A stretch of 64,000 bases of DNA from an uncultured Clostridia bacterium. Its GTDB lineage: Bacteria; Bacillota; Clostridia; Oscillospirales; Oscillospiraceae. Shown here in pieces: positions 9,719 through 55,025 of the stretch. The stretch lies in assembly GCA_947572235.1 (NCBI GenBank), contig CANPBB010000001.1, positions 1,620-65,619 of the forward strand. The letters are read 5' to 3'. The translations under genes and the position numbers were made by a program. The notes under the pieces were generated by a model. That model did not search any database and was not told where the DNA came from. It was given only the letters and a program-made list of their open reading frames with translations. Numbering within the stretch: position 1 is the stretch's first letter; every line of letters starts with the position of its first letter.

Positions 9719-10678
9719 GTGGAGGATGTGCAGTACTACTTTGCCCCTATGGAGGGGATCACCGTCTGGCAGTTTCGCCGGCTGCACCGGCAGTTCTTTG
9801 GCGGCGTGGACCGCTACTTCTCCCCCTTCCTCTCCCCCAATCAGCACCATGTATTCTCCCAAAAGGAGCTGGGGGATGTGCTGCCGGAGCACAACGAGGG
9901 GGTGCCTCTGGTGCCCCAGATCCTTACCCGGCGCTGGGAGGACTTTGTCTGGTGCGCCAAGGAGCTGAAGGCTATGGGCTACCAAGAGGTGAATCTCAAC
10001 TGCGGCTGTCCCTCGGGAACGGTGACGGCCAAGGGGAAGGGGGCCGGGATGCTGGTAGATTTGCCGGCGCTGGACCGGTTCTTGGAGGAGGTTTTCTCCC
10101 ATGTCGATGTGGCGGTATCTGTCAAAACGCGGCTGGGGCTGGTGGAGCCGGAGGAGTTTGAGGCGATTTTGGCGGTCTACAACCGCTATCCCCTCAGCGA
10201 GCTGGTGATCCACCCCCGGGTGCAGGCGGAGCTGTACCGGGGGACACCCCACCGGGAGGCCTTTGACGCCTGCGTGCCCCTGTCGAGGGCTCCGCTGTGC
10301 TACAACGGGGATATAGTCTCGGCAGCGGACTGCCGGGAGTTCCGCCGGACCCATCCGGCGGTGGACCGGCTGATGCTGGGCCGGGGGCTGGTGGGAAACC
10401 CCGCGCTGGTCCGGGAGGCCAAGGGAGGGCCCGCCATAGGCCGGGAGGAGCTGAGGGACTTCCATGATGGGCTGTACCAGTCCTGCTGCGAGGCGTTCCA
10501 CAGCGAGAAGAATGCCCTGCGGCCTATGAAGGAGATCTGGTTTTATCTGCTGAACCTCTTTGAGGAGGACCCGGCTCTGGCAAGGGCCCTGCGCCGGTGT
10601 ACGGATCCGGCGGAGTACCGTTTGACGGTGGGGCGGCTGTTTCGGGAGGGGGAGTGGAGGAGTGGAATTAGGAGTTAG
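9719..10678 (+). CDS. dus: tRNA-dihydrouridine synthase family protein
   Basis: YYFAPMEGIT...NLNCGCP...KTRLG motifs of the Dus FMN-binding TIM barrel. GTG start. The last codons (GIRS-stop) lie in repeat family C. Confidence 0.87.
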   Translation: MEDVQYYFAPMEGITVWQFRRLHRQFFGGVDRYFSPFLSPNQHHVFSQKELGDVLPEHNEGVPLVPQILTRRWEDFVWCAKELKAMGYQEVNLNCGCPSGTVTAKGKGAGMLVDLPALDRFLEEVFSHVDVAVSVKTRLGLVEPEEFEAILAVYNRYPLSELVIHPRVQAELYRGTPHREAFDACVPLSRAPLCYNGDIVSAADCREFRRTHPAVDRLMLGRGLVGNPALVREAKGGPAIGREELRDFHDGLYQSCCEAFHSEKNALRPMKEIWFYLLNLFEEDPALARALRRCTDPAEYRLTVGRLFREGEWRSGIRS

Positions 10679-10720
10679 GAGCTGAGGGGGTCCGGCGGAG
10701 CTGGACGGTTTGGATCTGGC
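10664..10720 (+). repeat. Repeat family C (TTAGGAN TIR element), partial copy
   Basis: GGAATTAGGAGTTAGGAGCTGAGGGGGTCCGGCGGAGCTGGACGGTTTGGATC matches the left halves of 13776-13874, 25346-25457 and 53913-54048. Confidence 0.65.
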
Positions 10721-10818
10721 CGCTTGGGCGGCCTCCGGCATCCTTGCTCTCCGCTCTTCACCATAGTCTGTTGGGGTTGTAAAATAATCAGTGGTGGCCT
10801 GAGGGCCGAGGAGGTATT

Positions 10819-13775: not shown

Positions 13776-13874
13776 TTTTGAATTAGGAATGGTGGTGTCC
13801 AGCGGAGCCGGACAGATTTGAACAGAATGGACGCCTTTCGATGGGGGAAATTCCTAACTCCTAATTCCTAATTG
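13776..13874. repeat. Repeat family C, full copy between mutY and the zinc-ribbon gene
   Basis: Terminal inverted repeats GAATTAGGAAT / ATTCCTAATTC; core GGTGTCCAGCGGAGCCGGACAGATTTGAACAGA. Confidence 0.8.
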
Positions 13875-25345: not shown

Positions 25346-25457
25346 TTTTTGAATTAGGAATTAGATGTTAGGAATTGAGGTGTCGCCTGCGGCGAGAGAT
25401 TTGAATGGAATGGAAAACTATCTATAGGGGAAATTCCCAATTCCTCGTTCCTAATTA
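25346..25457. repeat. Repeat family C, full copy between deoC and deoD
   Basis: Left end GAATTAGGAATTAGATGTTAGGAATTGAGG; right end GGGAAATTCCCAATTCCTCGTTCCTAATT. The core matches other copies. Confidence 0.8.
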
Positions 25458-53912: not shown

Positions 53913-54048
53913 GGTTAGGAATTGAGGTGTTCAGCGGAGCTGGACAGGATTTGAACAGAGCCGGCGGAAATTCACTGTGGCCGCTATCAGCGGCTAAATC
54001 CAAATCGTTCAGCTTTGCTGGATACATTCATTCCTAAATTCCTCATTC
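53913..54048. repeat. Repeat family C, longer copy between the 247-aa gene and comM
   Basis: GGTTAGGAATTGAGGTGTTCAGCGGAGCTGGACAGGATTTGAACAGAGCCGGCGGAAATTC ... CATTCCTAAATTCCTCATT. Confidence 0.75.
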
Positions 54049-54051
54049 GTC

Positions 54052-54795
54052 TCAGTACAGTGACAAATCACACATCGCCTTCCAATAGCTTTTTCGCTTT
54101 TTAGCCGCCTCCGGGTCCAAGGCCTGGAGGGTGTCCCAGAAGGGGGCGTAGAGAGATTTTTCGTGCTTGAAGATGAAGTCCAGGTCGATCTTGCCCGGGT
54201 GCCGGGCACAGAAGTCCTGCACCTTCCGGGCGAAGCCGGGATAGAAGGCGCGCCAGCAGGCCATGCTGAGCAGGTACTGGGACAGACTGGTGTTTACATA
54301 GGTGAGAATATCCCCGAAGGAGTCATGGAGCCATTTCCACACCGCGCCGGTTTTCAGCTCCACGGCGATATAGGCCACATCCTCGCGTTTCAGCCACTCC
54401 CAGCGCTCATCGGGCGTGCCGGCGCCGCTGATCACGCAGCCGCGGTCCAAGCTCCGGCTCTCGCCGATCACAAGGAGCTTTTTCTTCTTGGCCTGCTCCA
54501 CCCTGAGACAGCTCAGCCAAAAGACCACGCCGGGATACAGGCCGCGCTCCCGCTCCTCATCCGGGCAGCGATAGTCCGCGAAGCAGTCCGGAAGCCCCAC
54601 CTGCGTCAAAAACGCGCAGACTCCCTCCGGCAGCTCCAGCTTCCTGAGCTGAAACCCGACATACCGCCCCAGCGCCGGGTCCGCGAGAAAGTCCGCATCG
54701 GGCTCCAGCCCCGTCCCCGCCGCCTGCGCTTGCTCATAAAACCGAAGCATCTCGGGAAAATCCATCCAATTAGCCCGCCCTGCCTGCTGCCCCAC
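54052..54795 (-). CDS. Hypothetical protein (247 aa), possibly SUKH/SMI1-type immunity-like
   Basis: GTG start behind AGAGGG. My impression of a SUKH-like pattern is weak and unverified. Confidence 0.65.
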   Translation of the reverse strand: MGQQAGRANWMDFPEMLRFYEQAQAAGTGLEPDADFLADPALGRYVGFQLRKLELPEGVCAFLTQVGLPDCFADYRCPDEERERGLYPGVVFWLSCLRVEQAKKKKLLVIGESRSLDRGCVISGAGTPDERWEWLKREDVAYIAVELKTGAVWKWLHDSFGDILTYVNTSLSQYLLSMACWRAFYPGFARKVQDFCARHPGKIDLDFIFKHEKSLYAPFWDTLQALDPEAAKKRKSYWKAMCDLSLY

Positions 54796-55025
54796 AAAAA
54801 CACCCTCTTTTTTAATGAGAAATCAGACATGAATATGTCCGCCCGCACCGGACAATTCATAATCCGTTCGCCAAAGGCGAATACCATCACTCCAAACGCT
54901 TAACTCCTAATTTCTCATTGTACCACAAACCCGGCGCCGCGCAAGGCAAAAATCGACTGGATGGGGACAAGCTGCTGATAAATCGACAAAATTTTTGCCA
55001 AGTGCGAAAAATTTGAAAAGGGACA

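Follow-up and report, generated by a model that had tools for sequence, protein, structure and literature searches.

Gene ends in the window

The stretch of DNA analysed here (the window) comprises 64 000 nt of contig CANPBB010000001.1 from an uncultured Clostridia bacterium of the Oscillospiraceae, whose genome is designated G000; the relatives compared with it are designated G001, G002, G009, G011, G012 and G028. The Pfam names of the products in question were upheld: Dus, MutY (HhH-GPD and NUDIX_4), DeoC, PNP (deoD) and alpha-amylase. At the 3' ends of dus, mutY and deoC lie short tandem arrays of the heptamer TTAGGAN, placed as the arms of the elements listed below.

10661..10687, + strand: outer arm of a degraded element copy 3' of dus; units AGTGGAA, TTAGGAG, TTAGGAG, CTGAGGG (orthologue comparison)
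10690..10760, + strand: core of the dus copy, with hairpin GTCCGGCGGAGCTGGAC (10690–10706), GGTTTGGA and then a second GC hairpin; right arm gone
13776..13874, − strand: complete short element that takes up the whole mutY–zinc-ribbon gene spacer (orthologue comparison, RNA folding)
13851..13871, − strand: perfect three-unit arm TTAGGAATTAGGAGTTAGGAA at the MutY end, giving the tail LGIRS and its stop
25346..25457, − strand: complete short element in the deoC–deoD spacer (orthologue comparison, RNA folding)
25351..25375, + strand: deoD-side arm AATTAGGAATTAGATGTTAGGAATT, finishing about 20 nt before the deoD start
25434..25456, − strand: deoC-side arm AATTAGGAACGAGGAATTGGGAA, one intact and two decayed units, giving the DeoC stop TAG at 25453–25451

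C-termini are given below up to the last residue before the stop codon. The Dus open reading frame (ORF; 9719–10678, + strand) ends in EWRSGIRS, encoded GGA ATT AGG AGT TAG at 10664–10678, and its final residues GIRS are encoded by the arm. Stops phased at 7 nt follow one another in this arm: TAG at 10669, TAG at 10676 (the Dus stop) and TGA at 10683–10685. The MutY ORF, on the minus strand, ends in AQLGIRS with its stop at 13856–13854, read TTA GGA ATT AGG AGT TAG, and a perfect TTAGGAATTAGGAGTTAGG is present at 13871–13853. The element to which this end belongs is ordered as arm, about 40 nt, TTCAAATC with hairpin GTCCGGCTCCGCTGGAC, and a short reversed arm ATTCCTAATT that finishes right before the Shine–Dalgarno (SD) sequence of the next gene. 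The DeoC ORF (26125–25451, − strand) ends in QHN, with AAT TAG at 25456–25451 within AATTAGGAACGAGG. The deoD-side end of that element is TTAGGAATTAGATGTTAGG at 25354–25372; on the deoD mRNA strand the arm reads TCCTAA and places TAA in three frames. In each of the window's proteins the repeat-encoded tail falls past the last Pfam domain.

The initial annotation had described a heptamer triplet at dus with TAG in all three frames, and had derived the C-terminus and stop of three unrelated genes from it. The coordinates and ends that it gave for Dus, MutY, DeoC and the deoD-side copy were all reproduced. At dus, the 7-nt spacing and the closure of all three frames hold, but the third stop is TGA and only two TTAGGAG units are intact, the unit upstream of them being AGTGGAA. 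The repeat provides both tail and stop for Dus and MutY; for DeoC it provides the stop but not the tail. The period of 7 is 1 mod 3 and each unit carries a TAG (TAA on the complement), so that three units stop all frames on both strands.

Comparison with orthologues

Dus of G002 (65% identity) has no repeat; only 20 nt separate its TGA from the ATG of the amylase gene, which follows dus there too, and its tail reads FRELELLLDARTAS. In six more congeners Dus ends in PDW, ADWGD or DWAS. In G011 (95% identical) the element is present and Dus ends in WRSGVRS on a TGA; in G001 (80% identical) there are three intact units, the stop is at the first TAG and the tail is REGKMRAKN. The insertion is common to G000, G011 and G001, and G002 is without it. 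Relative to GGAATTAGGAGTTAGG, the Dus frames of G000 and G001 differ, G001 having eight additional bases (one unit and one base) before the shared stretch; since both ORFs close, the array closes an ORF in any frame. The spacer between dus and the amylase gene is 140 nt in G000 and G011 vs 20 nt in G002 (window 10790–10818), and the extra sequence is all repeat-derived except for the SD region.

The MutY tail LGIRS is restricted to G000 and G011. Ten congeners carry unrelated tails of 7–20 residues after the conserved PSAFGKFL, and in G009 the zinc-ribbon gene still follows mutY, with 51 nt of repeat-free sequence between them. DeoC of repeat-free congeners ends 11–13 residues past GTSR, compared with 16 residues in G000, where the stop and at most the final Asn come from the array. 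In G011, the core and left arm have been lost from this junction, a reversed two-unit array is left, and DeoC ends in KNS at the TAA of that array. This indicates that the complement strand supplies stops too. The deoC–deoD spacer of G002 is 46 nt and repeat-free.

When Dus, MutY and DeoC were aligned with repeat-free orthologues, as the initial annotation had proposed, none of the latter ended in GIRS or at the same position. As judged from sequence, the tails of Dus and MutY are repeat-derived, because the repeat-free congeners have other, length-variable tails and short clean spacers of 20–51 nt. The data may fit both insertion of the element into the last codons of a gene and later capture, beside an array, of a gene lacking its own stop.

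Two observations concern the deoC–deoD junction. An SD sequence supplied by the element before deoD was considered and discarded; the A-rich stretch and SD are native, as they are also found in the repeat-free G002 and G028. In G001, the spacer contains a hairpin core, GTCCCGCCTGCGGTGGGAT, preceded by TTTAGAAC, and no recognisable heptamer arms. The core may persist after decay of the arms, or it may be a separate element.

A dispersed repeat family in G000

G000 is a metagenome-assembled genome (MAG) of 2.63 Mb in 156 contigs, with 60% GC and a completeness of 87%. It contains 91 TTAGGAN arrays, each of 2–5 head-to-tail 7-nt units, and about 96 copies of a module consisting of a hairpin and GATTTGAA (consensus TAGGAGTTAGGAG-TGAAGGT-GTCCGGCTTCGCCGGAC-GATTTGAA). 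The 62 module hairpins that were folded have 58 different stems, and the variation in the stems is compensatory. Fifteen inverted module pairs, 80–212 nt long, were found. Complete copies have the order arm–module–(centre)–(module)–arm with the arms inverted and span 78–324 nt, and there are 12 such arm pairs; 36 of the 91 arrays adjoin a module and 24 have an inverted partner. The window has four matches to the 19-mer with up to three mismatches, against an expectation of 0.00. Genome-wide, exact two-unit runs number 41 vs 0–1 for six permuted heptamers, and the reversed pattern, used as a control, has no match across 41 genomes. Chance is therefore not a credible source of the pattern.

Two further members of the family lie in the window.

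53913..54048, + strand: two-module copy with arm, hairpin and GATTTGAA, centre, TCCAAATC and hairpin, reversed arm
54790..54920, − strand: degenerate relative, ATGAGAAATTAGGAGTTAAG ... hairpin ... ATTTCTCAT, with an A-run, SD and GTG start behind it

The two-module copy folds as one long hairpin (−61.7 kcal/mol, z = −7). The degenerate relative has the ends ATGAGAAAT and ATTTCTCAT and two internal hairpins, followed by AAAAAAGAGGG and the GTG start. A gathering search of the whole window against Rfam and E-value searches on two copies returned nothing meaningful, so the repeat is not a known RNA family. Three inverted module pairs 2.9–4.2 kb apart were considered as a possible autonomous transposon and rejected; they hold an ABC transporter and other ordinary genes.

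Placement at gene junctions

With each array oriented so that the outside lies 5' of TTAGGA, the outer flank was scored against the gene calls. Of the 91 outer flanks, 49 lie at gene 3' ends and 41 at gene 5' ends, at distances mostly below 30 nt. At the 3' ends, the stop codon is inside the array in 18 cases (offsets −4, −11, −18 and −25) and within 1–14 nt in 15 more. At the 5' ends, the array mostly finishes 7–27 nt before the start codon, i.e. at the SD. The elements therefore occupy junctions, each reaching from the stop codon of the first gene to a point shortly upstream of the SD of the second. These junctions are tandem in 74 cases, convergent in seven and divergent in four (tandem junctions make up 74% genome-wide). 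Module strand is unbiased with respect to flanking transcription (41 sense, 33 antisense).

A genome-wide count of genes ending in the motif, suggested by the initial annotation, gave 18 ORFs ending at an array TAG by gene calls and 21 by a looser criterion for long ORFs. It is quoted as 18–21, since the looser criterion takes in two shadow ORFs, or perhaps three, that run antisense to genuine genes (C11, minus strand, 13436; C90, minus strand, 8551; and perhaps C38). All three phases are represented among the 21 ORFs, phases 1, 8 and 15+ having 10, 6 and 5 members, which is compatible with entry in a random frame. The resulting tails are stereotyped: N/S, I/V-R-N/S or L-G-I/V-R-N/S. Intact arrays always end the ORF within six codons, at unit offsets of 1, 8, 15 or 22. 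From these tail patterns, at least 11 proteins of G000 hold array-encoded residues and not just a shared stop. The earlier proposal that the element sits at gene 3' ends and still closes the reading frame is thus borne out by the orthologues, by about 20 genes and by the switch of frame between G000 and G001.

Turnover between G000 and G011

G000 and G011 (95% amino acid identity) were compared at 12 of 19 intended sites, at each of which a G000 gene ends in an array. At seven of the 12 sites the region is covered in full by a single G011 match; the lengths differ by +7, +9, −8, −21 and −27 nt, and by +9 nt at a sixth site, which is only 82% identical. At an eighth site the match is in two pieces, each of which includes the element. 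One G011 site is without the 205-nt core and right arm and keeps a short decayed array, the gene ending in VGRIGN vs VGRIRN in G000. At another, where synteny is broken, the array is absent and the protein ends in CVELG vs CGKLGVRN in G000. At one site the G011 array has decayed and is read through to LGVRSVGAP, and at two of the 12 sites the G011 match covers just the flank on the side of the gene and the first part of the array. Unit number and reading frame both change between sister species.

Distribution across genomes and phyla

Among 41 genomes of G000 and its relatives, perfect triplets number 109 in G001, 12 in G000 and four in G011, and there are none in the 38 others. Outside this three-species clade, the exact 21-mer TTAGGAATTAGGAGTTAGGAA occurs at at least 120 loci in a search space of 596 Gb, in which about 0.3 matches would be expected for a random 21-mer. 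Hosts among the matches listed include Oscillospiraceae, Ruminococcus, Selenomonadales, many Bacteroidales, Rivularia/Calothrix/Nostoc, Synergistales, Chloroflexota and others, and the phyla so represented are Bacillota, Bacteroidota, Cyanobacteria, Synergistota, Chloroflexota and others. The 14-nt dimer TTAGGAATTAGGAG forms identical arms in many phyla.

Closure of reading frames is also seen in these hosts. Among 200 arrays with at least three units in the matches listed, an incoming ORF of at least 120 codons has its stop at an array TAG in 47 cases and at a TAA on the other strand (tail PNS) in 16. Arrays in other phyla reach 31 units among the loci listed. The hairpin and GATTTGAA core was found only at Oscillospiraceae-type loci (3 of 120 among the matches listed), which suggests that the arms are the cross-phylum part of the element and the core a lineage-specific one. 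In Rivularia, Calothrix and Nostoc, TTAGGAR arrays stand beside other heptamer arrays. In a Rivularia MAG (locus L112, 6580–6720), an array of about 15 TTAGGAG/TTAGGAA units runs straight into an AACTGAT/AATTGAT array, so that two heptamer families abut; the gene upstream of them has its stop at the first TAG.

Association with PF05635 genes

In some genomes the inverted arms enclose a gene of Pfam family PF05635, the 23S-rRNA-IVS/Avd-like four-helix-bundle family. Its members are relatives of Avd, a protein of diversity-generating retroelements, and to our knowledge PF05635 is not a transposase family. Inverted TTAGGAR arrays exactly bracket a PF05635 gene of 115–117 aa (E ~1e-27) both in Alistipes (L106) and in a Neisseriaceae MAG (L069). 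G001 has one PF05635 gene, between purH and purD and bracketed by TTAGGAR arms, and arms of this type also flank a PF05635 copy in Lawsonibacter, Dysosmobacter, Synergistales, Bacteroidaceae and Ruminococcus MAGs. The arrangement is therefore present in G001 and seven other genomes, from four phyla. PF05635 was above the cut-off in 13 of 16 diverse genomes bearing TTAGGAR, vs 8 of 41 relatives of G000. Of G001, G000 and G011, G001 alone has it. The G000 copies have the GC hairpin and GATTTGAA core in place of the PF05635 gene; they would at best be gene-less derivatives of a PF05635-carrying element. PF05635 ORFs were themselves seen to stop in their own reversed arm, as in G001 (L179, 1460–1900; EKRIPNS, at a TAA) and in the Neisseriaceae MAG (LKTTPNS).

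PF05635 genes also occur with other arm units, namely TGGGGAG, CTAGGAA, TGAACAG, AATTAAT and, in Calothrix parasitica, TAACTGA. The last case (C. parasitica NIES-267, AP018227.1; L246, 1400–1990) is a PF05635 gene within inverted TCAGTTA/TAACTGA arrays of 5 and about 14 units. On a tree of 40 PF05635 proteins, the TTAGGAR label needs three changes vs 7.4 when shuffled, and none of 500 shuffles was as low. A clade supported at 93/90 unites four TTAGGAR-armed proteins, one of them a Bacteroidaceae copy. The starred branches of the tree are compatible with a single origin, and the TTAGGAR-armed proteins may have one. In G012, from the family to which the window's genome belongs, a PF05635 gene with 50% identity to that of G001 is flanked by ATGAATR units in place of TTAGGAR (L183).

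Relation to known repeats

The short tandemly repeated repetitive (STRR) sequences of heterocystous cyanobacteria are intergenic tandem heptanucleotides with units such as CCCCAGT, TTGGTCA and CAACAGT. The TTAGGAR arrays resemble STRR and long simple-sequence repeats (LSSR), as far as these are described through the citation of Mrazek et al. (2007) in PMC4679880, in being intergenic tandem heptamers with many units per genome. The definition of STRR is without stop-codon coupling or inverted arm pairs; TTAGGAR arrays have both. A closer parallel is found in the direct repeats of the heptamer TAACTGA known from marine Beggiatoaceae, Cyanobacteria and Bacteroidetes (MacGregor, 2015; PMC4679880). 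Forward TAACTGA repeats stop all three frames, and in 13 sets the repeat takes in the stop codon of the gene before it; their patchy distribution across phyla led to a suspicion of horizontal transfer, for which no mechanism was found (MacGregor, 2015). The principle of an all-frame stop in heptamers is thus already published for TAACTGA (MacGregor, 2015). Both repeats consist of tandem 7-nt units at gene boundaries, with all-frame stops and a patchy cross-phylum spread. However, TTAGGA(A/G) has stops on both strands; TAACTGA, read in reverse, is open. Moreover, the arrays described here are inverted arms around a hairpin core in gut Oscillospiraceae-type Clostridia, and for TAACTGA no link to a protein gene was reported. 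In having 7-nt units, boundary placement and a stop-carrying unit, the TTAGGAR arrays agree with the tandem-heptamer class of STRR, LSSR and TAACTGA.

Bacterial miniature inverted-repeat transposable elements (MITEs) and palindromes that reshape gene ends include Correia/NEMIS in Neisseria, ERIC/IRU, RUP and the Rickettsia palindromic elements. The G000 copies are MITE-like in being 80–210 nt long, gene-less and multi-copy, with terminal inverted repeats and hairpin transcripts, and in lying between cistrons and sometimes over ORF ends. As to orthologous sites, more distant congeners lack the repeat at the dus, mutY and deoC junctions; between G000 and G011 the two sites without the core retain a short array, and the one site without an array has broken synteny. 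Unlike those of a MITE, the ends of the G000 copies are tandem heptamers of variable number and not a fixed terminal inverted repeat, and neither a target-site duplication nor a cognate transposase was found. Small size, multiple non-coding copies and terminal inverted repeats therefore fit a MITE, and the other two features do not. Rickettsia palindromic elements are read through in frame inside proteins; TTAGGAR arms end translation. Repetitive extragenic palindromes and bacterial interspersed mosaic elements (REP/BIME) are GTAG-headed palindromes associated with RAYT; the consensus cores here do not start with GTAG. The 23S rRNA intervening sequences (IVS) of Leptospira, Coxiella and others encode a PF05635 (S23p/Avd-like) protein. 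As in the PF05635-carrying heptamer element, PF05635 is the sole cargo in a long inverted-repeat stem, although the heptamer element lies between protein genes and has tandem-heptamer arms, and most G000 copies are gene-free.

A literature search did not find TTAGGAR heptamers or their 13–14-mers described as a bacterial repeat, nor a link of PF05635 to heptamer repeats. To that extent, several points are new: the TTAGGAR unit and its use, in Clostridia, as the inverted arms of an element resembling a MITE, the direct demonstration from orthologues that closure does not depend on frame, the exact TTAGGAATTAGGAG arms across many phyla, PF05635 bracketed by such arms in four of them, and the 109 triplets of the gene-bearing sister species vs 12 and four.

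Nature and origin of the repeats

The TTAGGAN triplet is very probably the arm of a dispersed, gene-less hairpin repeat at gene junctions, whose arms stop all frames and give stereotyped ends to about 20 genes; the G000 family is best read as decaying, gene-less, heptamer-armed hairpin elements. Each arm is a tandem run of TTAGGA(A/G), and the two inverted arms enclose, in this lineage, one or two copies of the GC hairpin and GATTTGAA. Where the native stop of a gene is met or overrun by an arm, translation would run up to six codons into the arm and end at the first in-frame TAG. The elements presumably are or were mobile, and the survivors would be copies at junctions or in dispensable last codons. 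The all-frame stops would then make such copies tolerable and would not be a service to the host. The full-length parent form may carry a PF05635 gene within these arms, an arrangement found in the sister species G001.

Several results weigh against this reading or against its link to PF05635. Forty of the 91 arrays are solo, having neither core nor inverted partner. At two sites polymorphic between G000 and G011 (deoC–deoD and the VGRIGN site), the genome lacking the core keeps a short array. Because of these solo arrays and the short arrays left at the two sites, arrays and cores may be separate entities, or arrays may arise and grow in place by slippage. No transposase or autonomous partner was found in G000, where the long inverted module pairs were checked. 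The flanks of the 12 complete copies show neither a target-site duplication nor any direct repeat; they read AA...TT, merely lengthening the palindrome. PF05635 was not found by a profile search of G000, an 87%-complete MAG in which absence is unproven, and the correlation between array count and PF05635 rests on three genomes. Finally, the PF05635 proteins of a Rivularia (L245) and the Calothrix locus described above are about 0.24 substitutions/site apart, and their arms are TGAACAG and TAACTGA, respectively. This pair argues against a simple recognition of one unit by one protein; near-identical proteins with different arms imply that the arm unit can change fast relative to the protein.

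That tails of the GIRS type are ancestral coding sequence, with a secondary likeness to the repeat, is highly improbable. The Leu of the MutY tail LGIRS does align with a Leu that is conserved in the final helix (KEAL, RHTL), and in one gene the native ELG end of G011 aligns with the KLG of KLGVRN. But repeat-free orthologues share neither GIRS nor its position, proteins that are unrelated end on one and the same 15-nt string, the Pfam domains stop short of the tails, and the G002 and G009 junctions are short and repeat-free. A somewhat better case, though still an unlikely one, can be made for plain simple-sequence repeats, grown by replication slippage from junctions resembling a stop and an SD (TAG/TAA and GGAG), with no mobile element and with genes that merely abut them. 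Unit number varies between G000 and G011 in multiples of 7, and heptamers are given as the commonest class of long simple-sequence repeats in bacteria in what PMC4679880 cites from Mrazek (2007); the solo arrays, and the failure to find a target-site duplication or a transposase in G000, point the same way. Slippage would account for change in length but not for dispersal to about 90 junctions. Nor does it explain the identical dimer in many phyla, including Bacteroidota and Cyanobacteria with weak use of the SD, the confinement of the array, among the 41 relatives, to one three-species clade, or the inverted pairing of arrays around a shared core or a PF05635 gene.

Arrays could also be selected cis-regulatory RNA sites, read by a GGA- or UAG-reading protein (CsrA-, HutP- or S1-like) or acting as SD mimics, for coupling or mRNA processing, with the stops incidental. 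Their position exactly between a stop codon and the next SD, their enrichment between co-directional genes, and the pairing of arms as hairpins in RNA folds are in keeping with such a role, which has been proposed for TAACTGA (MacGregor, 2015; PMC4679880). This too appears improbable, and slightly more so than slippage. There is no strand bias among the modules and arrays face genes both ways, no Rfam match was obtained, the downstream genes share no function, and copies decay and disappear between sister species with nothing replacing them. HutP-type (UAG-N4-UAG-N4-UAG), CsrA-type (GGA) and TRAP-type arrays were provisionally set aside, the arrays being found in both orientations and in phyla without these regulators.

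A broader proposal can be offered only tentatively, and we consider it rather doubtful as a whole: that PF05635 proteins are trans-acting partners which spread or maintain cognate heptamer arrays, and that TTAGGAR, TAACTGA and STRR are the arms of one cross-phylum, transposase-less class of hairpin element. Arrays would then decay after loss of the gene, as G000 (12 perfect triplets) and G011 (four) would illustrate beside the gene-bearing sister G001 (109), and the all-frame stops would let the arms lodge on stop codons.

Significance

About 20 proteins of G000, and dozens in other phyla, take C-terminal residues and stops from repeat DNA. In annotation, such C-termini should not be taken as conserved, as shifts of frame or unit number silently alter the tail. 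The contrast between three species (109 triplets where the PF05635 gene is present, 12 and four where it is absent) makes the link between arrays and PF05635 directly testable. Tandem heptamers have been unexplained in bacterial genomes since 1990; here one unit, letter-identical across distant phyla, is tied to hairpin elements with inverted arms and to a small, functionally uncharacterised protein family.

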